Shown here: positions 2,916-59,445 of the stretch, in pieces
How the letters are laid out: each line of letters starts with the position of its first letter
Numbering within the stretch: position 1 is the stretch's first letter
Sequence record: MF327009
Direction: 5' to 3' (one strand)
DNA from: Shigella phage Sf25
DNA length: 64,000 bases
The notes under the pieces: generated by a model
What the model saw: the letters and a program-made list of their open reading frames with translations, nothing else
Told to the model about the DNA's origin: nothing
Databases searched by the model: none
Made by a program: the position numbers and the translations under genes

Positions 2916-3271
2916 TCGTCTTTAAACAATCGGTTAACTATATGAGCTATTATATCACCATGACACGGCTTTGGTTTACATGTGCATCCTAGCCTCATTC
3001 CACGTAAAGGCTCTAAATGTGCTTTAGTTATTTCTCCGGATTTAATTCGACGTATAAAATCTTTTTTGAATAATTCAATGGCAGCCTCCCGGCTCGTCTT
3101 TAAACAATCGGTTAACTATATGAGCTATTATATCACCATGACACGGCTTTGGTTTACATGTGCATCCTAGCCTCATTCCACGTAAAGGCTCTAAATGTGC
3201 TTTAGTTATTTCTCCGGATTTAATTCGACGTATAAAATCTTTTTTGAATAATTCAATGGCAGCCTCCCGGC
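2916..3271. repeat. Exact direct tandem duplication, 2 x 178 bp, spanning the 3' end of a small ORF just upstream of the nrdA start
   Basis: cgtctttaaacaatcggttaactatatgagc... recurs at 2917 and 3095. Confidence 0.9.
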
Positions 3272-3392
3272 TGCCAGCATCTTTACCGACGTAATTTCCC
3301 CAAAATGTACCACGGTGAATATTAACATCAAAGTCGGATTTATATTTATTCACTACCCGGCATAGACGGCCCGCGCGGTTGTAGGTGTTCAT
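3075..3392 (-). CDS. Hypothetical protein (Cys/His-containing); C-terminus altered by the 178-bp duplication
   Basis: ORF track 105 aa; in the duplicated copy the frame ends ...[11 protein letters not shown], while a single-copy reading would give ...RLFKDDFQVEDLCN overlapping the nrdA ATG. Confidence 0.5.
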
Positions 3393-3609: not shown

Positions 3610-4466
3610 ATTGCCATTTTCCCTTTAATTGCTGGATGCGATTCATAATTTTCAAGGATAAAATCTTTCGGTTTCATGTATTCAGTTAACCAGTAAAGCT
3701 GTGTTTCGGTGTCACAATTTCCAAACTCTATAGGCCAATCAATTTTAAGTTCACACAGTTCTTTAGGCTCACGACGTAAAATTTCTTTACATTGCTCAGT
3801 ATGATTCATATAGATGTGAGTATTACCACCAGAAAATATCAAATCTCCTGGGATAAGATTACACATCTTAGCCACAATATGCGTCAAGGCAGCGTACGAG
3901 GCAATGTTGAATGGCAAGCCCAAGAAAACATCTACACTTCTTTGGTACCATTGTAAATCAAGATAACCATTACGCACATTAAACTGATAGAACATATGAC
4001 AGGGCGGTAATGCCATTTGATTGATTTCAGCTGGATTCCATGCTGAAACGATTTGACGTCGATCAGTTGGTAATTTTTTAATACGATCAATAGTTTCAAC
4101 TAATTGATCCACACCACCGAAATCACGCCATTGTTTACCGTATATAGGACCAAGTTCACCACTATGATATCCTAGGTCTTTAGCTTGGTTTTCATAATTG
4201 TCATCCCAGATAGTTTTACCTTGAATAAGACTACCGTGAGTAAGAAGACGTAAATCATTAACATTGGTAGAACCGGAAATAAACCATAAAAGCTCAGCAA
4301 TGCATGCATTCCAGGCGAGCTTCTTAGTTGTTACTGCAGGAAAACCTTTGGTTAAATCCCATCGTAATTTAGTACCGAACAAAGCAATTGTTCCTGTGCC
4401 CGTTCGGTCATCGGTTTCATAGCCATTTTCAAAAATGTCTTTAATTAAATCTTGGTATTGTTTCAT
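3606..4466 (-). CDS. td: Thymidylate synthase, uninterrupted (no group I intron)
   Basis: 286 aa; ThyA motifs including the PPCH catalytic-Cys region; contiguous ORF. Confidence 0.93.
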
Positions 4467-6441: not shown

Positions 6442-6887
6442 TACTTTTTGAAAGTTTTTCGCAAAAGTTCAATGATTTCATCTACATTGTTTTCGTCAAC
6501 AATGCAGTGAATTTTTGTTACGCCAGAAACCTTGTCTATGACTTCATCTACATTGTTTTCGTCAACAATGCAGTGAATTTTTGTTACGCCAGAAACCTTG
6601 TCTTTGACTTCATCTTCTTCAGAAGTCGGTTCTTTATACTCACGAAAACAATGAAATTCATCTTCGCAAATTTCTAAAAGTCTATCTTTGAGGTAAAAAT
6701 GCTTTCCATTTGCGCATTCAATGTGTTTTACTGCTTTATATCCATTAGCGACGGAAACTTCTTTAACTTCAAACCATCCGCCATTATCTCGAATAGCTTT
6801 AACGATTGATGAATTAGAACGTGGGCTATAATTAATAAATGTATCAATAAGTCTTGGAACAAGTTCATACTTTTTGCCAATATACAT
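6441..6887 (-). CDS. Hypothetical protein carrying an in-frame 22-aa tandem repeat
   Basis: ORF track 148 aa; DKVSGVTKIHCIVDENNVDE repeated. Confidence 0.55.
   Translation of the reverse strand: MYIGKKYELVPRLIDTFINYSPRSNSSIVKAIRDNGGWFEVKEVSVANGYKAVKHIECANGKHFYLKDRLLEICEDEFHCFREYKEPTSEEDEVKDKVSGVTKIHCIVDENNVDEVIDKVSGVTKIHCIVDENNVDEIIELLRKTFKK
6477..6608. repeat. Near-exact direct tandem duplication, 2 x 66 bp
   Basis: ttcatctacattgttttcgtcaacaatgcagtgaatttttgttacgccagaaaccttgtct occurs at 6477 and 6543. Confidence 0.85.
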
Positions 6888-8212: not shown

Positions 8213-8310
8213 TTTTATTTCCTTTTTAATTTAATTAACAGTTGGTGCTATGACGATGTATGACCTCATAGCTGGTCAGTGAGATAATTATAATCTATTT
8301 ATAATAAGCA
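8213..8310 (-). promoter_or_regulatory. Gene 32 5' control region: A/U-rich leader (candidate autoregulatory operator) plus overlapping late (TATAAATA, 8296-8303) and MotA-box-like middle promoter elements
   Basis: Minus strand reads TTGCTTATTATAAATAGATTATAAT ... AATTAAATTAAAAAGGAAATAAAAATG. Confidence 0.5.
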
Positions 8311-8311
8311 A

Positions 8312-10362: not shown

Positions 10363-10370
10363 TATAAATA
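10363..10370 (+). promoter_or_regulatory. Late promoter TATAAATA for gene 34
   Basis: Exact TATAAATA about 35 nt upstream of the gene 34 ATG. Confidence 0.65.
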
Positions 10371-15403: not shown

Positions 15404-15430
15404 GGGAGCCTTCGGGTTCCCTTTTTCTTT
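15404..15430 (+). terminator. Intrinsic terminator or processing hairpin with UUCG tetraloop between 35 and 36
   Basis: GGGAGCC-TTCG-GGTTCCC followed by TTTTTCTTT. Confidence 0.6.
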
Positions 15431-15437
15431 ATAAATA
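15430..15437 (+). promoter_or_regulatory. Late promoter TATAAATA for gene 36
   Basis: Exact TATAAATA 24 nt upstream of the gene 36 ATG. Confidence 0.65.
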
Positions 15438-16134: not shown

Positions 16135-19100
16135 ATGGCTACTTTAAAACAAATACAATTTAAAAGAAGCAAAACTGCAGGTCAACGTCCTGCTGCTTCA
16201 GTATTAGCCGAAGGTGAATTGGCTATAAACTTAAAAGACCGTACTCTTTTTACTAAAGATGACTCGGGAAATATTATTGATTTAAGCATTTCTGCCGGTG
16301 GTAACATTAGTGGAAATATCACTCAAAATGGTGATTATTTACAAAACGGCACGTATAATCTTAATGGAAATCAGTTTGTTTATGCAGGAAAGTATATTGA
16401 ATTCTTGCCAAAAACTGCTGGAAATGGTGCTTGGGCAAATCAGCACACAAATAAAGCTCCAATTTTCACCGATTTGAGTTCAACTACTTCAACTTCTGAA
16501 TATCATCCGCTAATTAAACAACGTTATAAAGATGGAACGTTTTCATTAGGGACTTTAGTTTCTGAAGGCTCAATGAAGATACACTATATCGATGAAACTG
16601 GCACTTCAAAATATTGGACTTTCCGACGTGATGGTGGTTTTGTTGTTGATAGTGGTAGTTTAACTGTTACTGCTGGAAACATATCTGCTTCAGGCAATAT
16701 TAATTCGGCATCAGGGGTTGTTTCAGCTCCTCAAATTAATACAAAAACCATTGTTTTAGATACAAAAGCATTTGGACAATATGATTCGCAGTCATTAGTT
16801 CAGTATGTTTATCCTGGCACTGGCGAAACAAACGGTATAAACTATCTTCGTAAAGTTCGCGCAAAATCAGGTGGTACAATTTATCATGAAATAGCTTCAG
16901 CTCAAAGTGGAAAAAGCGATGAAATTTCGTGGTGGACTGGAAATACAGCCGTTAATAAACAAATGGGTCTTCGTAATGATGGTGCAATGGTATTACGTCG
17001 TTCACTTGCTATTGGCACAATTACTACAGATGAAAACGTAAATAACTATGGATCTGCTGGAGCAATGGGAGAAAAATACATTGTTCTTGGAGATGCGTCA
17101 ACTGGACTAGCTTATAAAAAGACAGGAGTTTATGACTTAGTTGGTAGTGGTTTATCTGTTGCTTCTATCACTCCCGACAGTTTTCGTAGTACCCGTAAAG
17201 CAATTTTTGGACGTTCTGAAGACCAAGGCGGTACATGGCTTCTTCCTGGTCAAAACGCTGCTCTTCTTTCAGTTCGTACAGATATTGATCAAAATAATAA
17301 CGGTGATGGTCAAACTCATATTGGATATAATAGTAACAGCAAGTTTTATCATTATTTTAGAGGCAGAGGCCGAATGGCTGTTGGAATGGCTGAAGGTCTT
17401 ATTGTTGAGCCTGGAATTTTAGATATTAAAACTGGTTCAAATACTGTTTCTATTAGAGCTGATGGCGGAATTTCATCTACTCAGCGTCTTTCATTGCAGA
17501 ATGGTATATTTTTATCTTCTGACGGAAATAACAACGGTATATCGTTTAAAGCTTCTAGCAGTATAGATGGAACTAAAACTCTTAATTGGGATGCTGGTAC
17601 TCGTGCAGGTCAAAACAAAAATACAGTAATTTTAAAAGCATGGGGAAATTCATTTAATACAAGTGGTGGAACTGATAGACATACTGTATTTGAAGTTTCT
17701 GATTCGCAAGGATACTACTTTTATGCTCAACGTACTACCCCTGCATCCGGTCAAACAGTAGGTCCTATTAATTTTAAATTTAATGGTACTGTAGAAACCG
17801 GTCATATCAATGGATTAGGTAATATTACTTTATCTGGGGCAGTTATAGCAGATTCTGCTAATATTAAAGGACCGCTAAAAATATCTAATGCTAATACAGC
17901 TGATGCTTTTAGAATATGGAACGCTGAATATGGAGCCATTTTCCGTCGTTCAGAAACATCATTGCATATTATTCCTACACTTAAAGATGCAGGGGAAAAT
18001 GGTGGAATAAGTAATCTTCGCCCATTAAGTATTGATCTTTCAAACGGATTTGTGCAAATGCATCATTCTCTTTCTGTGGGGAATACAGTAAGAACGAATG
18101 GATTGTTTGCTGTGGATACTTCAGCTGCTCTTGTTGCAATTAACAGATGTTCCTATTGTGAAACAAAGATACGTTCAAGGGAATAGCACCTATTCATTAG
18201 GTACTTTAATTAATGGTGGTGATTTCCGTTTACATTACCATGAAGGCGGTGACAGTTCTTCAACAGGTGCAGTTATAAAAGATATTTCCTGGGAATTTAA
18301 ACGTAATGGTGATTTCTATTCGCCAGGTCGTTTACGTACAGGAAATATCTATATTGGAACTGATGGTAATATCACGGGTGGTTCTGGTAACTTTGCTAAC
18401 TTGAATACAACTTTAAACCGTAAAGTTAATTCTGGTTTTATTACTTATGGAGCAACTGCAGGTTGGTACAAGTTTGCAACAGTAACAATGCCTCAAGCTA
18501 CATCAACCGTTTCAATTACAGTCACTGGCGGAAATGGATTTAATTCTGGATCATTTAATCAGTGTGCAATTTCTGAAATTGTTCTTCGTACAGGAAACAA
18601 TAATCCTCTGGTGATACATATGACATTTATGTTAATATGGGAACATATGCTAATCAGTTGATATTTAACTATAGTTCTGTTGATAATGCCACAGTTCAAA
18701 TTATTGGCGCATTCAGTTCAGCTCAAAATCCTGTTGATGCATTGCCAGAAACATATGTTAAAGGTCAGGTAGCAGATGTATTGACTAACTTAGTTGATTC
18801 TGGAAAAACGAAGCGTTTTGTTGCTGAATCTGAAATAGCTATTAATAATCAAACTGGATTACGTATTACGAGTAATGGTGATAAATCTGGTTCAAATTCA
18901 GTATTATTCAGAAATGATGGATCAGCGTTTTATATTCTTTTAACAGATAAAAACGCAGCAGATGGAAATACGACTGCCACAGAAGGAGATTGGAATGGTA
19001 AACGTCCTTTCCAAATTAATATGACTTCTGGTGAAGTAACATTCGGAAATAATATTAATATTTCTGGAAACGGAAGCATTACTTGGACAAAAGCCGGAGC

Positions 19101-19770
19101 AAACCCTAGAAATATGAGAATATTTCATGCAGGTGATGCTTCTCGTGGTAACCGTATTGAAATCGCAGATGATACTAATTATATTGCTTACTTTGAAAAA
19201 ACTCCAGGTGGAGCTAACCGCTTTGTAGTTAATGGTGCTACTGTAGCTGGTGTTAATCAAATGAATTCATTTGGTATTAACATCAATAACGCGCTTGGTG
19301 GAAATAGTATAGCATTTGGTGATAATGACACGGGTATTAAGCAAAACGGCGATGGATTATTAGACATTTATGCGAATGGTGTGCAAACGTTCCGTTTCCA
19401 AAACGGTGATTTGTACTCATATAAAAATATAAATGCCCCAAACGTTTATATTCGTTCTGATATTCGCTTAAAATCTAATTTCAAACCTATCGAAAATGCA
19501 CTTGATAAAGTTGAAAAACTCAATGGTGTCATTTATGATAAAGCTGAATATATCGGTGGAGAGGCAATTGAAACTGAAGCGGGTATTGTGGCTCAAACGT
19601 TACAAGACGTTTTACCAGAAGCCGTCCGTGAAACAGAAGACAGCAAGGGTAATAAAATACTCACTGTTTCTTCTCAAGCCCAGATTGCTCTTCTGGTTGA
19701 AGCTGTGAAAACGCTTTCTTCTCGTGTAAAAGAACTTGAATCTAAACTTCTTGAATCTAAACTTATGTAA
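16135..19770 (+). pseudogene. 37: Long tail fibre distal subunit gp37 (T2-type with C-terminal intramolecular chaperone domain), interrupted by two frame changes (frame 1, +1, frame 1)
   Basis: Three ORF-track pieces 16135..18186, 18098..18661, 18637..19770, each with fibre-like sequence; C-terminus ...IRSDIRLKSNFKPIENALDKVEKLNGVIYDK. Confidence 0.6.
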
Positions 19771-19773
19771 AAG

Positions 19774-19791
19774 AGGGCTTCGGCCCTCTAA
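19774..19791 (+). other. UUCG-tetraloop RNA hairpin between genes 37 and 38
   Basis: AGAGGGC-TTCG-GCCCTCT, followed by AAGGA RBS. Confidence 0.5.
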
Positions 19792-19800
19792 GGATTTTTA

Positions 19801-20498
19801 ATGGCAATTGTAGGTGTTCCTGGCTGGATTGGTGAATCTGCCGTGAATGAAACAGGACAGCGTTGGATGGATGCTGCAATGAGAGCAGTCCGTGTTTCAG
19901 TTCCCGGTTGGATGAGCTCAATGGCCGGACAATCTAAAGAAGTATATTATAGCATTGGTGCTAGTAATTCTTATAATAAAGATACATTAATAAACTGAAT
20001 GCATACGTGACACTTAATATCAATTCAGGCGTGCATGTTTGGGGCCGTGGCGGGAATGGCGGAAATAACTCTGCCGGTGGAGCAGGAGGAACTGCAATAA
20101 ATAATGGAATTGGAACTAGATTGCGTATTAACAACAATGGTGTTATCGCAGGAGGCGGTGGCGGCGGTGGAGGCGGATATTATTCTCCTTTTTCACAAAT
20201 GAAATTGACTTTTGGCGGTGGCGGCGGTCGTCCATTTGGTGCTGCTGGCGGGTCTGCTAATATGGAACAGGGCGCTACTGCTGGTACTATTTCTGCACCT
20301 GGTAAAGGGTCTGTCAATGGTATCTATAATGGCGGGAATGGCGGTGATGCTGGTGCCGCAGGTGGTAAATGTAATATTCGTGGGCAAGGATCAGAATATA
20401 ACGGCGGTGCGGCCGGTAAAGCTGTTACTGGTAATGCTCCAACTTGGACTAAGGTTGGTACAATATATGGCCCTCTGATATTCTATTTGGTGTTCTAG
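19801..20498 (+). pseudogene. 38: Receptor-recognising adhesin gp38 (T2-type, glycine-rich motifs), split into two reading frames
   Basis: N-terminal 65-aa ORF (MAIVGVPGWIG...) ends at a stop at 19996-19998; the glycine-rich part (GGGGGGGGYY...) follows in another frame from 20007. Confidence 0.55.
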
Positions 20499-20503
20499 AT
20501 CGC

Positions 20504-21100
20504 TTGTTCAAAGATAACGCTACCGGGAAAGTTCTTGCTTCCCGGGTAGCTGTCGTAATTCTTTTATTTATGATGGCGATTGTTTGGTATAGGGGAGATA
20601 GTTTCTTTGAGTACTATAAGCAATCAAAGTATGAAACATACAGTGAAATTATTGAAAAGGAAAGAAATGCACGCTTTGAATCTGTCGCCCTGGAACAACT
20701 CCAGATAGTTCATATATCATCTGAGGCAGACTTTAGTGCGGTGTATTCTTTCCGCCCTAAAAACTTAAACTATTTTGTTGATATTATAGCATACGAAGGA
20801 AGATTACCTTCAACAATAACTGAAAAATCACTTGGAGGATATCCTGTTGATAAAACTATGGATGAATATATAGTTCATTTAAATGGACGTCATTATTATT
20901 CTGACTCAAAATTTGCTTTTTTACCAACTAAAAAGCCTACTCCCGAAATAAACTACATGTACAGTTGTCCATATTTTAATTTGGATAATATCTATGCTGG
21001 AACGATAACCATGTACTGGTATAGAAATGATCATATAAGTAATGACCGCCTTGAATCAATATGTGCTCAGGCGGCCAGAATATTAGGAAGGGCTAAATAA
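20504..21100 (+). CDS. t: Holin T, lacking the conserved N-terminal residues
   Basis: 198 aa from an internal Met (MFKDNATGKVLASRVAVVILLF...); SDILFGVLDRL is encoded upstream in frame but has no start codon and is preceded by an in-frame TAA. Confidence 0.8.
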   Translation: MFKDNATGKVLASRVAVVILLFMMAIVWYRGDSFFEYYKQSKYETYSEIIEKERNARFESVALEQLQIVHISSEADFSAVYSFRPKNLNYFVDIIAYEGRLPSTITEKSLGGYPVDKTMDEYIVHLNGRHYYSDSKFAFLPTKKPTPEINYMYSCPYFNLDNIYAGTITMYWYRNDHISNDRLESICAQAARILGRAK

Positions 21101-21373
21101 TTATTTGTTTGTATACATCTCTAGATATCGATATACACCCTCAAAACCCTCGTTGAATTCGTCGATGAGGGTTTTCTTATCTTCTTGAGTTAATTCAGAA
21201 ACAATTTTACGGAATGAATTCTGATTTAATTTTCTACCTTCATGCGTTACTCCAATCTCATTCAAAAATGCAATAAAATTAGCACGATTTTCAACAATAT
21301 CTTCTCTGGAAAATTTAATCAAAATAGACGCAACAGTAATAATTTCACGAACTGTATCAATGTTTTTATTCAT
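21101..21373 (-). CDS. asiA: Anti-sigma70 factor AsiA
   Basis: 90 aa MNKNIDTVREIITVASILIKFSRED... Confidence 0.9.
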   Translation of the reverse strand: MNKNIDTVREIITVASILIKFSREDIVENRANFIAFLNEIGVTHEGRKLNQNSFRKIVSELTQEDKKTLIDEFNEGFEGVYRYLEMYTNK

Positions 21374-27857: not shown

Positions 27858-28119
27858 TTAGACTTTCCTTTTTACCGCTGAGATAAGCGTTATACACTTT
27901 AAGAGTACCGTAGTAAATTCGGTCATTTTCATCTAAAGACACACGGTCAAGTTCATCAAGTTCCTTTTTATCCATGACTATAACATCATTGCAATAAAGA
28001 AACCCAAGTTTTTCGTGACCAAACTCAAATTTATTACAGTACACAATATTAGCGTGATGATTTCCGTGCAGTTTAATCTCTTTTATGTCGGAATCACCGA
28101 TATTCATACAATAAATCAT
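27790..28119 (-). CDS. Hypothetical protein (overlaps denB start by about 68 nt)
   Basis: ORF track 109 aa. Confidence 0.45.
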   Translation of the reverse strand: MIYCMNIGDSDIKEIKLHGNHHANIVYCNKFEFGHEKLGFLYCNDVIVMDKKELDELDRVSLDENDRIYYGTLKVYNAYLSGKKESLNAENESGFTETISDSDIYPIEQ

Positions 28120-28144
28120 AATTTTTCCTTAAAACAAAAGGGCC
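28120..28144 (-). terminator. Intrinsic terminator with UUCG tetraloop
   Basis: Minus strand AAGGGC-UUCG-GCCCTT followed by TTTTGTTTT. Confidence 0.65.
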
Positions 28145-28157
28145 GAAGCCCTTTATT

Positions 28158-28352
28158 TTACTTGAATTGTGCAATTCTTTTCTCTAGACATTCAGCATAA
28201 GATTTCATTGAGATGAACTGTGAAAGCAGCAGTTCTTGCTCAACTGCACTAACCGTTAGAAACTTTGTGCTTTCTAAAAATTTGCTCAGTGCATTAATTT
28301 TGAGCATTAATTGATCGTATTCTTCTTTTACTCGTGCTTGATAACCTAACAT
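28158..28352 (-). CDS. Hypothetical protein
   Basis: ORF track 64 aa; AAGGAAA RBS. Confidence 0.5.
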   Translation of the reverse strand: MLGYQARVKEEYDQLMLKINALSKFLESTKFLTVSAVEQELLLSQFISMKSYAECLEKRIAQFK

Positions 28353-29330: not shown

Positions 29331-31757
29331 TTAGGCCGCAAGGGCCTTCATAGTTTTAGCGATTTGAGAAACTTCATCATCACTTAAAGAGTTGCGATAA
29401 CCGATGAAGTCGGAAACAATACGGAATTTCTTGGTAAACTCAGCAACCATTTTATCACTGTTTTTTGAAGCATTATTTGATAATACATCAAAAAGATTAG
29501 TTACTGTCCAGATGTCATGACCGATGGTACCTTTTCCACCGTTGAAATATACGCCCCGCAATGAACTAACTATATTAGCGAGTCGTGTATATTCTTCAGA
29601 AACTTCATCTGTACTGAAGTACTTCATCATAAAATCTAGTTCAGGATACTTGATAATTTTATCAATATATCGTTGAGCTGAACTTGAATAACCTACGTAC
29701 TTATCATAATCTACATCATCAAAAGCATCTACATATAAATCACGCAGAGTTTCAAAAATACATTGGCACTGACCGAGTTCTTTTACCTTTTTCTGCAAAA
29801 GCGGACGAATAACATAAAATTCATTAATGCCAATAAGATTAGCCATACGAATCAAAATATTCATAGATGGATGACAAAGAGATGTAGTACCATCCATAGA
29901 GAAAATATCAGAACGATGCATATACGCTACATAACCAGTAATTTCATCTGCTTCTGATGTGAGCGTAAACAGTTCCTCTTTTTCCCATCGCCCATCTTTA
30001 ATTTCAAACTTAAATGCTGTAGCAGCTTTAGGACGAGGAGCTTTACTTTTAACTACCTTTGGAATATAGCTTTTAACTAAAGCTTCAATTTCTGACAAAT
30101 AATGAATGTTAACTTCATCACTTTCAAACATCGCCATAATATCAGGAAGTAAATCAATCTGCGATTCTACTTCTGGATTAATAAACAGAAGACGCTCATT
30201 GTGATGAATATTCAAAGTGTTATTAAATTCACTATCATCTAACGCATGTGCTAATCCACGAACAATATTAACACGATTTTTAATATTATCAATAACGATA
30301 TTAATTTTTGTTGTATTAATACCAAACAGACGATAACTTGATGCAACGGCTGAAGTTTCATGACTTTGCTTAATGCGTTTCAGTCGAGGGTCAAGATTTA
30401 CTTCATACACAACTCCTGCATTGCATAACTTACTGTCAGGTTCAAACATGCTCTGCATCTTTTTATATGACAGATTTTTAGTCGTGAATTTGACTGAATT
30501 ACTAATCATATAATCTCGAGCAGAATATCCCATCTTCATCAATTCACGATATGTGTGACGAGGAGATGTAGATTCTTTAAATCGTTTTACATCTTCATTG
30601 AATGCCTTCTCACTAAGCTCTTTAACACGCTCAATAATATTTTTACGAGTACGATCATCTAGTGAAAGAGCTTCGCGTGATGGAGCAATATCAAGTGAAC
30701 CCATTGGAAACTTAATGTAATTCACTTCATTGCGAATGCTTAGCCAGTTACGGTCTCTAATAACACCATCGATAGGATAAACAATACCGCCATAGATAGC
30801 ATATAATCCACCACGATCAGGCCAGTATCTTTCTGGATTTACACCATAATAATCATCAAAATCAGGAAAATAATCAATTTCAATAATATTTTTACGAGTA
30901 CGATCATCTAGTGAAAGAGCTTCGCGTGATGGAGCAATATCAAGTGAACCCATTGGAAACTTAATGTAATTCACTTCATTGCGAATGCTTAGCCAGTTAC
31001 GGTCTCTAATAACACCATCGATAGGATAAACAATACCGCCATAGATAGCATATAATCCACCACGATCAGGCCAGTATCTTTCTGGATTTACACCATAATA
31101 ATCATCAAAATCAGGAAAATAATCAATTTCGCGGTCAAGACCATTAATGATAGCCAAATCTTTGAACGGTCGCATGATATAAGAAACTTCATAAGCAAAG
31201 TTTCTAAAGTCTTTTTCTTCAACTGGAACTACGATTTCAATACCAGTTTTATCATCTGGACCCATTTCTTTTACGAATGTAGGTTTAATCTGTGGGCCAT
31301 CACCATCCATGTAAGCTACATAACCACGAATTTCACCTTTATGATACGAAGTAATACTAAACGTATCAGTATAACTAAACGGAGATTTAGAACCTAAACC
31401 AAATCCGCCAATAAAGTCATTAGATTCAGCCTTAGATGAACTGAAGTATGAATTATACAGCCCAGGAGAATTATCATCACCCTGAATATCAAAATCACTC
31501 ATACCCGGACCAAAATCTCGACAAACAAATCGTGGATCTAATCGTCCTGGAACTTGAATGATAAATTTTTCAGGATTTCCATTAAGTGCATGAGCATCAA
31601 TCATGTTAGTAATCAATTCACGGACTACTGCGCGAATCTTGTTTGTATACAAATCAGATGACAGAATTTTAAATACTTTAGGATTTGCTGCGATGCTAAA
31701 TGCTTTTGATTTAGAACCATTGCCAAGAATTGTTTCTTTTTCAGTGGTGATAATCAT
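29331..31757 (-). CDS. rIIA: rIIA protein; 808 aa including an 83-aa in-frame tandem duplication
   Basis: N-terminal GHKL-like ATPase sequence; peptide [25 protein letters not shown]...RTRKNII occurs twice. Confidence 0.9.
30632..31129. repeat. Exact direct tandem duplication, 2 x 249 bp, inside rIIA
   Basis: caataatatttttacgagtacgatcatctagtgaaagagc... begins at 30632 and 30881. Confidence 0.9.
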
Positions 31758-42809: not shown

Positions 42810-42839
42810 ATCATATCATCGTTAGAAAGGAAAGTAAAC
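42810..42839 (-). promoter_or_regulatory. Putative early promoter for modB (GTTTAC-N18-TATGAT); part of it is re-created in the adjacent duplication
   Basis: Reverse complement GTTTACTTTCCTTTCTAACGATGATATGAT, then GGAGG RBS. Confidence 0.5.
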
Positions 42840-43228
42840 AACTTTTTGAATTATTTTGCCCAGGGAGCCCAAGGCGGAGGGTCAAGATGGTATGAAGCTA
42901 GTTCTTCTAGAAGAGCATCTGGGGCTTCAATTCCATAATTCTGTAATACTATACGGTACTCTTTCTTATAATCACTAGAATCATTCTGGTTATTCGTAGA
43001 ATGATTATCTTCTAACATTCATATCATCGTTAGAAAGGAAAGTAAACAACTTTTTGAATTATTTTGCCCAGGGAGCCCAAGGCGGAGGGTCAAGATGGTA
43101 TGAAGCTAGTTCTTCTAGAAGAGCATCTGGGGCTTCAATTCCATAATTCTGTAATACTATACGGTACTCTTTCTTATAATCACTAGAATCATTCTGGTTA
43201 TTCGTAGAATGATTATCTTCTAACATCT
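42813..43228. repeat. Exact direct tandem duplication, 2 x 208 bp, covering a promoter/intergenic region and most of a small ORF
   Basis: atatcatcgttagaaaggaaagtaaacaactttttgaattattttgcccagggagccc... begins at 42813 and 43021. Confidence 0.9.
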
Positions 43229-45475: not shown

Positions 45476-45530
45476 ATTATTTATAATAAATTCTCGCGGC
45501 TTTTAAGTCGTCGTTTATTTAAATGAGCTA

Positions 45531-46293
45531 TTAATAGCCTCGATCTTGACGAGCGAAGTTTTCAGCATTTTTCAGATAATAAAGTTTAAAGATTTCCTCA
45601 GCTGACATTCCAAGAGCAATGAATTTATTCATGAAAAAGTGAAATTGGTCAATCAGTTCAAATTTAATTTCAAGCTGATCTTCAGGAGATAAGTCTTGAA
45701 TTTTCTTGGATTGCATTTCAGAATAACGTTTCTTCCAAGGTTTCCATACAGCAGAAGCTTCTTTTTCACCATTACTCATACCACCAAGAGAAGTATATAG
45801 CTCGCGAGTTTCATCTGCGATATAATCGTCTTGGTTTCGCAACCAAGCAAGAACTTCTCCTGCAGTTTCAAGTGAATCAGGATGACGATTTGTTTCTGGT
45901 TTATCATTAGCCAAACGAATCTGTAAATGCCGCTGCATGTCAAATTTTCTTGGATTGCATTTCAGAATAACGTTTCTTCCAAGGTTTCCATACAGCAGAA
46001 GCTTCTTTTTCACCATTACTCATACCACCAAGAGAAGTATATAGCTCGCGAGTTTCATCTGCGATATAATCGTCTTGGTTTCGCAACCAAGCAAGAACTT
46101 CTCCTGCAGTTTCAAGTGAATCAGGATGACGATTTGTTTCTGGTTTATCATTAGCCAAACGAATCTGTAAATGCCGCTGCATGTCAAGCATAACCTGCAA
46201 TGGGTCAATACTGTGCATAATATACTCAGCATATGCACGATTTGCTTTATCAACACCTTCGATCAAATGAGCACATTCATTAAAGTGAGCCAT
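45531..46293 (-). pseudogene. 56: dCTPase/dUTPase gp56 (MazG-like) disrupted by a frameshifting 244-bp tandem duplication
   Basis: N-terminal frame MAHFNECAHLIEGVDK... (AAGGAAA RBS) terminates at the repeat junction near 45940; C-terminal part ...ALGMSAEEIFKLYYLKNAENFARQDRGY is in another frame. Confidence 0.6.
45700..46187. repeat. Exact direct tandem duplication, 2 x 244 bp (not a multiple of 3), inside gene 56
   Basis: attttcttggattgcatttcagaataacgtttcttcc... begins at 45700 and 45944. Confidence 0.9.
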
Positions 46294-54536: not shown

Positions 54537-55381
54537 TCACCGTTATAATCTTTTTTCACAATATGAGTTTCGCCAGTATTCCACCAATGATCAACCAAGT
54601 AAAAATGACGAGAATATACATGAAGACTTCCAACATTCCATATAATAGAACCTGCTTTATACTGACGAGTTGAATCGCCGGCATTCAAATCAGATACTAA
54701 TTTATCTAATACGTATTTTTGCCATGCATAATCATTACGGAATCCGAAGACCACGTCATTTGAGCGCATGCTTACTACTGCATTGACTTTCTTATCACGA
54801 ATCAGGTACTGTACTGTATTAGTACACATGAAATCTGACATACCATCTTTATTGTAGTCAAATTGCATGGATGGACGAGTCATGCTTACTACTGCATTGA
54901 CTTTCTTATCACGAATCAGGTACTGTACTGTATTAGTACACATGAAATCTGACATACCATCTTTATTGTAGTCAAATTGCATGGATGGACGAGTATAAAT
55001 CATGATACCACGTCGAGAATCAGGATTTTGACCAAGTTCAGCTAAACACATATCATACTGGGCATAGTTATCTTCTGACCAAATAGCCCAACCATAATTC
55101 GAGTTAATTTCGCCTTTAGAAGATGCTACCTGCTGCCAAATCTTTGGTGTTTCGCCTGGAATATCTTTGACAAACAGACTTTGAGACTTGTACCATTCAA
55201 GTTCACGCTGAATGTATTCATCATTAAGAGCGCCAAAAATAAAGGGTTCATCTGCTACAAATGATGCGCCAATAATTTCAATAGTTTTAACACCGGTTTT
55301 ATCAACTACGAAATCTTTTTCTTTTAATGCAAGCCCCAAATGAAGACGGATTTCTTCAACTGTCATAAAGTCACTAATCAT
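54527..55381 (-). CDS. 42: dCMP hydroxymethylase gp42; 284 aa including a 38-aa in-frame tandem duplication
   Basis: ThyA-like fold sequence; peptide TRPSMQFDYNKDGMSDFMCTNTVQYLIRDKKVNAVVSM occurs twice. Confidence 0.9.
   Translation of the reverse strand: MISDFMTVEEIRLHLGLALKEKDFVVDKTGVKTIEIIGASFVADEPFIFGALNDEYIQRELEWYKSQSLFVKDIPGETPKIWQQVASSKGEINSNYGWAIWSEDNYAQYDMCLAELGQNPDSRRGIMIYTRPSMQFDYNKDGMSDFMCTNTVQYLIRDKKVNAVVSMTRPSMQFDYNKDGMSDFMCTNTVQYLIRDKKVNAVVSMRSNDVVFGFRNDYAWQKYVLDKLVSDLNAGDSTRQYKAGSIIWNVGSLHVYSRHFYLVDHWWNTGETHIVKKDYNGEWK
54767..54994. repeat. Exact direct tandem duplication, 2 x 114 bp, inside gene 42
   Basis: catgcttactactgcattgactttcttatcacgaatcagg... begins at 54767 and 54881. 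Confidence 0.9.
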
Positions 55382-56601: not shown

Positions 56602-59445
56602 TCAGCCAAACAGGAAGTCTAACGAAGCTTTTTCTTCATAGTCCATACCAGCCGATTCACACATGCCTGCAAGCGGTTTAACAAACGATTTTTGGAACAA
56701 AGTTGAGTAGTCAATCCAAGACAGTACGTCAGAACGAATTTCTTTTGGAAGTTCTGTACCCGACGGCCAAGCAATGCATTTGTCACCAAATGGATTTCCT
56801 TCACGCAATGGAAGAACCATTACTTTATTTCCATCCAAAATTGGAGCTACACCTAAACCGCTAACAGCTCGACGATAAGTTAGCACACCACGAATATGGA
56901 ACGGACATTTAAATCCTGGCCAACCTTTATCATCATATTTCGCTATATCGTTCGCAGTTTTTACTTCAGCAATAACTTTATAGTCAAGTTGACGATATTC
57001 TTTCTCGAAGTTCTTGTAATATTCTTGGACAGACTCTTCACCTTCCTGAAGAATACGACGAATACTTTCTTCGAGAGCTTCTTGGACCGCTTTAGGCGTT
57101 GAACTCTGCTGAGTTTCCATACCCATGATTTTTAGATGCGGTTCAGCAAATCGCTTATCTTCCATATCATATACGTTCAGAGCATAACGCTTTTTCGCTT
57201 TCCAAAATCCGCCAACGCCCTTTGAACCAAGTGGAGGGCAAGAAATAGCTTCACGGTCCATATGCATCAGATGCTCGCGGTTATTCATATAATCACATAA
57301 CTCACGATATGCAACATCAATCATAGGTTCCATCTTTTTCTTACCGAACTGATTCATGAATTCAACTAAATCGTTCTGCTCTTTGAATCGGTCAAGACCA
57401 ACTTTTTCAATAACTTTATCTACACAAACATATACCGAATCAGTATCACCTGCTGCAATGAAATCTTCGCCATTAGTTCCGCATACTTTATTCAGATATT
57501 CATTAATTTTACGAGCAATCCACTGAATACCAACTTGGCCGAAAATTGTGATAGCAGTAGCATTTCGCAAATCATAGTAACGGAAATGAATATTACCAAG
57601 AGCACCATAAAGACTGTTAATAAGAATTTTACGGTTCAGCTGATTTGTGTTAGCAAGTGTAGCTGCTTTTTCACACTCTTCGATCAAACTATTAAGAACA
57701 GATTCGGTGTAATTCGATAGTTCATTTAAGAAATCATCACTGAACTTAACATATCGTTCAACTTCTGGTTTAGTTGAGCAAGACCCTGCGCCTTTCATAA
57801 TAATCTTTTTAATAGCTTCGGCATTCATTTCTTCAGCGAACATTTTCTTTTTCCAATCTTTACGCTGGAAAAATACTTTAGCGATTTCCTTTGGAATGAT
57901 ACCTTCTTGATGCTTATCATACATCCATCCATTCGGAGAACAAGAATATTCATCACTCGGTTTAGGAGCTGTTCCTGCGATATATTCATGAATTGGATGA
58001 ACTTTAAACTGACCACGAATAGTCTCAGGACTAATGTTAACCTGACGAATAATGCTCGGATACAGAGACGTCAAGTCAAAACTCATAATATATCGACGAG
58101 CAATTGGTTTAGGTTCAAACACAAATGCACCCGGAAAACTCTGTTTAACGTGCGAACCTTGTTGAGGAATAACCTTATGTTCACCTTTCAATGAGTTAAA
58201 AATAATAGCATCCCAAGTTTTAATAGGACTCATTACACCGGAAAAAGGCATTTTAGCGTAATAAGACATACTTAAAACTAGATCGATAAACCCGCGAATT
58301 TTATCAATTGCTTGAACTGATTCTACGTCAATGATGTTATAACTAATGTATCGTTGATGATTAGTCTCACGAAGTTTATTAATAGGACCGTCGTATGGTA
58401 ATTTACCTTTTTTGGTTTCATGTTGAGCAACTGATTCCAAAGAGAATGACGGCAAATTAGTAAAAGCGAATTTCTTGTACAAATCTAAATAATCAAGAAT
58501 AGATACGCCATCAATAGAATAAATTTCTTTGCTGCCGTACATATTTTGAATTAGTTTGGATTTTACCCGACCGATTGGAGAGAAACGTTTCATACTGCGT
58601 TCGCCTAGAATCATTTTAACACGATTCATGATATATGGAACGTCAAACCCCTCAATATTCCAACCGGTAAAAATAGCAGGTCGTTTCTGTTCCCAGAGAT
58701 TGATATATTCCATGAGCATATCACGCTCATTATCGAATGGCATATAAATTACTCGGTCAAGAATTTCTTGAGGAACTTCATCACCACCTTCACAGTCAAG
58801 CTTAGCAGCTAACTTTGCATCCCATTTTGATACTGAACCGTACATTGAATTCAAAAGGTCGAAAACATAAAAACGATCGTCAATTGAATCGTAATGAGTG
58901 ATAGCATCAATTTCATATTCAGCTTTCATTGGGTCAGGAAATTTATCACCAGTAACCTCAATGTCACAGTTAGCTACACGAACACCGTACATTGAATTCA
59001 AAAGGTCGAAAACATAAAAACGATCGTCAATTGAATCGTAATGAGTGATAGCATCAATTTCATATTCAGCTTTCATTGGGTCAGGAAATTTATCACCAGT
59101 AACCTCAATGTCACAGTTAGCTACACGAACAAATTTTCGGTCATAAACAATTTCTGAACCATATGTATCACTGATATAAGCGAGTTTAAAATCGTTCATA
59201 CCGAGAGCTTCGAGACCGATGTCTTCCATTCGCTTCATCCAATCTCGAGCATCTTTCATTGATGGAAATTTTTGAGGAGCGCAGTTTTTACCATAGATGT
59301 CTTTGTACTTTGACTCTTCCTTACAATGCCTAAACATAGTTGGAAGATATTCTACTTCACGAGTACGTTCCTTTCCATTTTCATCAATATAACGTTCAAC
59401 AATATTATTTCCGACTGTTTCAATAGAGATATAAAATTCTTTCAT
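56602..59445 (-). CDS. 43: DNA polymerase gp43 (family B); 947 aa including a 49-aa in-frame tandem duplication in the N-terminal/exonuclease region
   Basis: Pol B motifs (DxxSLYPS-like FDLTSLYPSII, YGDTDS-like GDTDSVY); peptide VRVANCDIEVTGDKFPDPMKAEYEIDAITHYDSIDDRFYVFDLLNSMYG occurs twice. Confidence 0.92.
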   Translation of the reverse strand: MKEFYISIETVGNNIVERYIDENGKERTREVEYLPTMFRHCKEESKYKDIYGKNCAPQKFPSMKDARDWMKRMEDIGLEALGMNDFKLAYISDTYGSEIVYDRKFVRVANCDIEVTGDKFPDPMKAEYEIDAITHYDSIDDRFYVFDLLNSMYGVRVANCDIEVTGDKFPDPMKAEYEIDAITHYDSIDDRFYVFDLLNSMYGSVSKWDAKLAAKLDCEGGDEVPQEILDRVIYMPFDNERDMLMEYINLWEQKRPAIFTGWNIEGFDVPYIMNRVKMILGERSMKRFSPIGRVKSKLIQNMYGSKEIYSIDGVSILDYLDLYKKFAFTNLPSFSLESVAQHETKKGKLPYDGPINKLRETNHQRYISYNIIDVESVQAIDKIRGFIDLVLSMSYYAKMPFSGVMSPIKTWDAIIFNSLKGEHKVIPQQGSHVKQSFPGAFVFEPKPIARRYIMSFDLTSLYPSIIRQVNISPETIRGQFKVHPIHEYIAGTAPKPSDEYSCSPNGWMYDKHQEGIIPKEIAKVFFQRKDWKKKMFAEEMNAEAIKKIIMKGAGSCSTKPEVERYVKFSDDFLNELSNYTESVLNSLIEECEKAATLANTNQLNRKILINSLYGALGNIHFRYYDLRNATAITIFGQVGIQWIARKINEYLNKVCGTNGEDFIAAGDTDSVYVCVDKVIEKVGLDRFKEQNDLVEFMNQFGKKKMEPMIDVAYRELCDYMNNREHLMHMDREAISCPPLGSKGVGGFWKAKKRYALNVYDMEDKRFAEPHLKIMGMETQQSSTPKAVQEALEESIRRILQEGEESVQEYYKNFEKEYRQLDYKVIAEVKTANDIAKYDDKGWPGFKCPFHIRGVLTYRRAVSGLGVAPILDGNKVMVLPLREGNPFGDKCIAWPSGTELPKEIRSDVLSWIDYSTLFQKSFVKPLAGMCESAGMDYEEKASLDFLFG
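58837..59130. repeat. Exact direct tandem duplication, 2 x 147 bp, inside gene 43
   Basis: accgtacattgaattcaaaaggtcgaaaacataaaaacgatcg... begins at 58837 and 58984. Confidence 0.9.

Follow-up and report, generated by a model that had tools for sequence, protein, structure and literature searches.

Loss of the holin gene t start through a 72-bp deletion at the gene 38/t junction of a T-even phage sequence, one of 17 private events of probable non-biological origin

The window analyzed here (the whole 64,000-nucleotide stretch of the Shigella phage Sf25 record) is part of a Tequatrovirus (T-even) genome whose gene 38 is of the T2 type. The interval flagged in the initial annotation lies in the late tail-fibre/lysis region, in which genes 34, 35, 36, 37, 38 and t follow in that order and are succeeded by asiA on the opposite strand. 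The order 37, 38, t and oppositely oriented asiA is also that of the T2-type Tequatroviruses JK1 (Escherichia phage, MZ436830), teqsoen (Escherichia phage, MN895436) and Sf24 (Shigella phage, MF327008), which share with the window flanks of 99–100% identity and the combination of an adhesin gp38 (PF21721 plus PF05268) with a Phage_holin_T gene. The references, but not the window, contain a 261-aa gp38 ending in GTIYGSRV, a 32-bp spacer with the motif AAGGAGG and a 218-aa T protein starting MAAPRISFS. The features of the locus are as follows.

19801..19998, + strand: N-terminal fragment of gene 38, 65 aa, frame 1, with the Gp38_N domain (PF21721; tblastn, query residues 1-65 at 100%)
19997..19998, + strand: junction of a separate, frameshifting 103-bp deletion that takes out codons ~66-100, without microhomology (alignment)
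19998..20498, + strand: C-terminal part of gene 38, frame 3, with the glycine-rich receptor-binding domain (PF05268; tblastn, query residues 101-261)
20450..20452, + strand: TAA closing the t frame upstream of the t remnant (sequence, translation)
20467..20478, + strand: fortuitous mini-ORF ATG GCC CTC TGA, made by the join and lying in a third frame, different from those of t and of the local gene 38 part (read from the sequence)
20469..20470, + strand: junction of the 72-bp deletion (alignment; breakpoints computed exactly)
20471..21100, + strand: t remnant, codons 10-218 plus stop, without start codon or ribosome-binding site (tblastn, Pfam)
20504..20506, + strand: TTG, the Leu21 codon of normal T and the first canonical start in the t frame (sequence)

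The 209 codons of the t remnant encode a protein 100% identical to residues 10-218 of the JK1 holin (tblastn), and the translation of 20453-21097 matches Phage_holin_T (PF11031) over profile positions 5-233 of 233 with E = 4.7e-114 and 380 bits (curated cut-off, 22.2 bits). The intact JK1 holin has 218 aa and begins MAAPRISFSPSDILFGVLDRLFKDN. The t frame of the window (frame 2) reads as a stop, CSNLD, a second stop and then GWYNIWPSDILFGVLDRLFKDNATG, with no ATG, GTG or TTG between the TAA at 20450-20452 and the TTG at 20504-20506; the first real ATG of the frame lies further in, at the LLFMMAIVW stretch. The initial annotation was thus right that t lacks its conserved start and that no start codon follows the in-frame TAA ahead of the shortened product; the lengths it compared (198 aa against 218 aa) also hold, but the residue from which it counted the shorter product is not the first Met but Leu21, encoded by the TTG. 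The ORF from this codon (20504..21100) specifies 198 aa without the first 20 residues, and no Shine-Dalgarno sequence is apparent upstream of it on reading the sequence. A complete t ORF of ~218 aa with its own start and Shine-Dalgarno sequence is hence absent just 3' of gene 38 in the window. The cytoplasmic amphipathic helix at the N-terminus is likewise incomplete: coding for residues 1-9 is gone, and no canonical start is placed so that residues 10-20 would be translated. A T variant without its first 22 residues forms no holes, and the amphipathic helix is the site of the inactivating changes at D19, L21 and F22, with an R34 substitution also among the mutants (PMC12162936). The best product available to the window, lacking residues 1-20 of this helix, would therefore be nearly equivalent to the inactive variant that lacks 22 (PMC12162936). 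The T4 t mutants are single engineered or selected lesions in an otherwise intact context, whereas the window has also lost the translation signals and carries 16 further lesions.

The missing t start is accounted for by a clean 72-bp deletion at 20469/20470. Aligning the window with the 38-t junctions of JK1, teqsoen and Sf24, the check proposed in the initial annotation, gives a clean 72-bp gap at exactly this position, with 100% identical flanks; as judged from this alignment with three references, the gap is no chance feature. The missing bases correspond to positions 3794-3865 of JK1 (L001; GTTCAAGAGTATAATTTTTGAATAAATATCCTTAAAAGGAGGGTCTATGGCAGCACCTAGAATATCATTTTC in the reference) and comprise gene 38 codons 258-261 and stop, the 32-bp spacer, in which the ribosome-binding site AAGGAGG lies, and the first nine t codons, including the ATG; this is precisely the loss that had been proposed, from the end of gene 38 into the beginning of t. 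The two breakpoints share 1 nt (G). Gene 38 is affected at both of its deletions. Its frame does end in the flagged interval, as previously described, at the TAG at 20496-20498, which closes a frame-3 ORF of 163 aa (20007..20498) with an aberrant tail, GTIYGPLIFYLVF followed by the stop: the last residues are GPLIFYLVF, in which PLIFYLVF replaces the C-terminal SRV of the normal GTIYGSRV. A second break, overlooked in the initial annotation, lies ~470 bp upstream of the 72-bp junction, where the N-terminal fragment stops at a TGA made by the 103-bp deletion. Gp38_N and GP38 consequently do not lie in one continuous ORF of ~261 aa but in frames 1 and 3, parted by this deletion. The 163-aa gp38 fragment and the 198-aa T product are both absent from a public gene collection, and the gp34 of the window is likewise absent from it in an exact-protein look-up.

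The sequence around these lesions is otherwise ordinary. Across 1.3 kb around 38-t, identity is 99.7% to Escherichia phage JK1, the best among the matches listed, and 99.3–99.6% to slur phages, teqsoen and others among the same matches. In all of the best 40 of the 56 records that cover at least 80% of this query, the alignment comes only in three pieces, with 1505 bases spanned on the side of the record and 1331 on that of the window. The backbone as a whole is a natural mosaic, 99.7% identical to JK1 in 38-t and 99.7–99.9% identical to Sf24 elsewhere, and identity to Sf24 falls to 89–93% in the region of genes 37-38. The public Logan contig SRR22078124_1716 (L012; 17.8 kb) encodes a gp35 protein identical to that of the window and has genes 59, 33, 37, 38 and t all intact; it was ruled out as a copy of the same backbone, its DNA being only ~96% identical.

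To compare the junctions with public sequence, 40-mers centered on the suspect joins (20 nt on each side) were used as queries, for which a 28-nt megablast word matches only the same join. As a control, a 40-mer from within t gave matches in 487 records. The 40-mers of 14 junctions, including 20469/20470 and 19997/19998, matched none of 50,697 phage records, and the junctions of the seven perfect tandem duplications described below occur in none of these records. The same join recurring in independent genomes, as expected of a natural polymorphism, was found for none of the 14. An exact 23-mer across 20469/20470 is present in no contig of IMG/VR, the JGI metagenomes or the GTDB genomes; its intact counterpart occurs in seven IMG/VR contigs. 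The k-mers ACAATATATGGCCCTCTGATATT and ATCATTTTCGCCCTCTGATATT distinguish the deleted from the intact form of this junction. All 11 references inspected (three GenBank phages, seven IMG/VR contigs and one Logan contig) carry the intact junction and are nearly invariant from the gene 38 terminus through the spacer into the start of t (AAGGAGGGTnTATGGCAGCACCTAGAATATCATTTTCG). T2-type references sharing the junction of the window, which the initial annotation had named as the finding that would speak against a deletion, are therefore not seen in any of these sets, and the sequence comparisons indicate that the 72-bp deletion is not a natural variant.

The deletion is one of 17 private events in the window, nine deletions (70–173 bp) and eight tandem duplications (66–249 bp). 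The deletions were found by BLAST of the window against Sf24, teqsoen, FJ1 and a Logan contig, and the duplications by self-BLAST.

8809/8810: deletion of 173 bp, removing the gp59 start and codons 1-52 and the last six codons and stop of gp33
18146/18147: deletion of 173 bp in gene 37
18606/18607: deletion of 70 bp in gene 37
19997/19998: deletion of 103 bp in gene 38
20469/20470: deletion of 72 bp, gene 38 end and t start
25630/25631: deletion of 134 bp in ac
~26625: deletion of ~130 bp in ndd.2a/ndd.4
41990/41991: in-frame deletion of 156 bp in modA
60190/60191: frameshifting deletion of 139 bp in the clamp-loader gene 62
1651-2151: tandem duplication of 249 bp in nrdA, second copy from 1900, copies 100% identical
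2916-3272: tandem duplication of 178 bp in nrdA.1, second copy from 3094, copies 100% identical
6469-6600: tandem duplication of 66 bp in frd.2, second copy from 6535, one mismatch
30631-31130: tandem duplication of 249 bp in rIIA, second copy from 30880, copies 100% identical
42811-43226: tandem duplication of 208 bp in modA.2, second copy from 43019, copies 100% identical
45699-46187: tandem duplication of 244 bp in gene 56, second copy from 45943, copies 100% identical
54767-54994: tandem duplication of 114 bp in gene 42, second copy from 54881, copies 100% identical
58837-59131: tandem duplication of 147 bp in gene 43, second copy from 58984, copies 100% identical

Natural differences from Sf24 were kept out of this count, as were divergent replacement segments. 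The 335-bp difference at 45498/45499 (Sf24 gp155/156) was dropped as a private deletion because the segment is also absent in other phage records, and its junction 40-mer matched such records, marking it as a natural polymorphism; the 166-bp Sf24 gp113 segment (25676/25677) was dropped in the same way, being also absent in teqsoen and PE37. The segG homing endonuclease of Sf24 is absent at 8275-8311, a natural presence/absence polymorphism, and the Sf24 gp121/gp122 paralogue pair is represented by a single copy at 27977-28240, also a natural polymorphism. Deleted segments relocated within the window were looked for, and none was found. The tail-fibre region holds four of the 17 events within 2.3 kb, which could hint at something local, although the clustering is not significant by a rough calculation.

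The breakpoints bear little relation to sequence homology. Exact computation for six of the deletions gives a microhomology of 0 or 1 nt, inspection by eye gives ~1 nt for two others, and the seven perfect duplications show 0–3 nt; the ac deletion, which has a mismatch at its junction, was left out of the scoring. The mean over the scored events is an estimated ~0.7 nt, the level of random breakpoints in AT-rich DNA. Breakpoints that ignore homology speak against an origin by slippage during replication or by recombination. In T4, the classical deletions terminate in short direct repeats. Spontaneous T4 deletions and duplications, such as the classical rII deletions, resemble the events described here in size (tens to hundreds of bp) and in the tandem arrangement of duplicate copies, but differ in that the microhomology in the window is at random level, with the 66-bp duplication as the sole exception. 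This duplication, in frd.2, is bordered by TTCATCT repeats and, alone among the events, resembles natural slippage; its junction had no one-piece match among the phage records listed.

The consequences for coding capacity were mapped by tblastn with reference proteins. Frame changes or truncations affect gp59, gp33, gp37 (twice; frames 1, 2, 1), gp38 (frames 1, 3), t, ac, gp56, gp62 and nrdA.1; nrdA, rIIA, gp42 and gp43 carry in-frame internal duplications, and modA an in-frame deletion. The neighbours gp34, 35, 36, 41, 44, 45, 61, uvsX, asiA and rIIB are intact, at 99.7–100% identity. Gene 37, encoding the distal tail fibre (16135-19770), is split by its two private deletions into three ORFs of 683, 187 and 377 aa, and the sequence is intact at both deletion sites in Sf24, PinkRuby, teqsoen and FJ1. 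A joint rescue of gene 37 by the two deletions was considered and rejected: together they remove 173 + 70 = 243 bp and restore the distal frame, but the 460 bp between them are genuine gp37 read out of frame. The tail lost by gp33, the late-transcription co-activator, is its sliding-clamp-binding end. With gene 38 frameshifted and gene 37 frameshifted twice, the phage would therefore not adsorb to a host. In T4 genetics, 33, 37, 38, t, 42, 43, 56 and 62 are needed for plaque formation. Taken at face value, the genome would be without a functional holin, adhesin, distal tail fibre, dCTPase and clamp loader and without an intact gp33, and on this reading of its genes it could not form plaques.

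Because the loss of the t start is one of 17 abrupt private events, its reading shifts from an interesting mutation to a probable artefact. The 72-bp deletion would then be one of a set of lesions, placed without regard to sequence or gene borders, on an ordinary and well-conserved Tequatrovirus backbone, and the cause may be that the sequence was corrupted or edited, for instance through chimeric joining, errors in post-processing or intentional changes made in silico. From the deletion, its uniqueness, the 16 other events and the genes that they break, all of which are directly observed, we infer that the deletion and its companions very probably have a non-biological cause, a sequence-level artefact or edit; the grounds are that the genome as it stands would not propagate, that its backbone is otherwise undecayed, that the tested junctions are absent from public sequence and that the breakpoints lack homology.

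Genuine mutations in an existing but defective T-even genome, for instance one from a stock that had been heavily mutagenized or damaged, a single non-viable molecule sampled from a population, or a genome maintained by co-infecting helper phage, would be consistent with the cleanness of the lesions and the natural mosaicism of the backbone, as well as with the slippage-like appearance of the frd.2 duplication at its repeats, and T-even phages recombine and complement one another at high multiplicity. Such an origin would however need 17 independent events in 64 kb with no other decay, amid neighbours that match working phages at 99.7–100%, and the simultaneous loss of at least seven growth functions (33, 37, 38, t, 56, 62 and the start of 59); with microhomology only at random level, and with the 14 junctions absent from the phage records and the 38/t junction also from the three contig collections, we regard it as unlikely. 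In a more specific form, in which the window faithfully represents an existing T-even genome with many deletions and duplications that is kept by co-infecting relatives and whose breakpoints were made by homology-independent end-joining, it becomes very unlikely indeed; end-joining of this kind is not known to act in T4-type phages.

An ordinary assembly error, in which repeats were collapsed or expanded or the path through the hypervariable 37-38 region switched wrongly from one to another of several T-even strains present together, would fit the mosaic nature of genes 37 and 38, the four deletions that cluster there, and the size of the events, all of which are at most ~250 bp and thus about the length of a short read. 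The 0–3 nt shared at the junctions argue against mis-assembly of the de Bruijn or overlap type, since assemblers join through shared k-mers or overlaps, and most of the events lie in single-copy conserved genes (43, 42, 56, 62, nrdA and rIIA), which offer no repeat to collapse, so that we consider an error of this type highly improbable. Finally, a viable natural variant, making an N-terminally shortened holin by initiation at TTG 20504 (198 aa) or at a non-canonical start codon and lysing normally or with altered timing, is hardly conceivable: the remaining 209 t codons do match a functional holin perfectly, PF11031 is matched end to end and an in-frame TTG is present, but the Shine-Dalgarno sequence is deleted with none apparent ahead of the TTG, D19, L21 and F22 fall in the lost or shortened helix and T that lacks residues 1-22 fails to form holes (PMC12162936), the 38/t junction occurs in no relative among the phage records or the three contig collections, and broken genes 38 and 37 would preclude adsorption anyway.

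The biological significance of the t start loss is minimal. Even if real, the deletion would only describe a dead phage, unable to lyse or adsorb, in which a much-studied gene has been knocked out, and it would bring no new biology. The artefact reading carries over to the other anomalies of the window (the split genes 37 and 38; the duplicated DNA polymerase, dCTPase, rIIA and nrdA segments; the truncated gp62, gp59 and gp33), which would belong to the same class and should not be treated as pseudogenization, programmed frameshifting or domain duplication.

The regulatory signals of the region were also inspected. The deleted spacer contains, in the references, a candidate T4 late promoter 19 nt 5' of the t ATG (AATAAATA, 7/8 to TATAAATA), for which no claim is made, such matches being at chance level (20 one-mismatch matches to TATAAATA found, 22 expected). 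Over the whole window, the TATAAATA motif occurs less often than in shuffled sequence (4 occurrences, 10.5 expected). Perfect boxes stand at 10363-10370 (+), ~35 nt 5' of gene 34, and at 15430-15437 (+), ~24 nt 5' of gene 36. Terminator-like hairpins are present at 19772-19789 (+), immediately 3' of gene 37 (AGAGGGCTTCGGCCCTCT with a T run behind it), and at 21143-21175 (+), between the convergent genes t and asiA.
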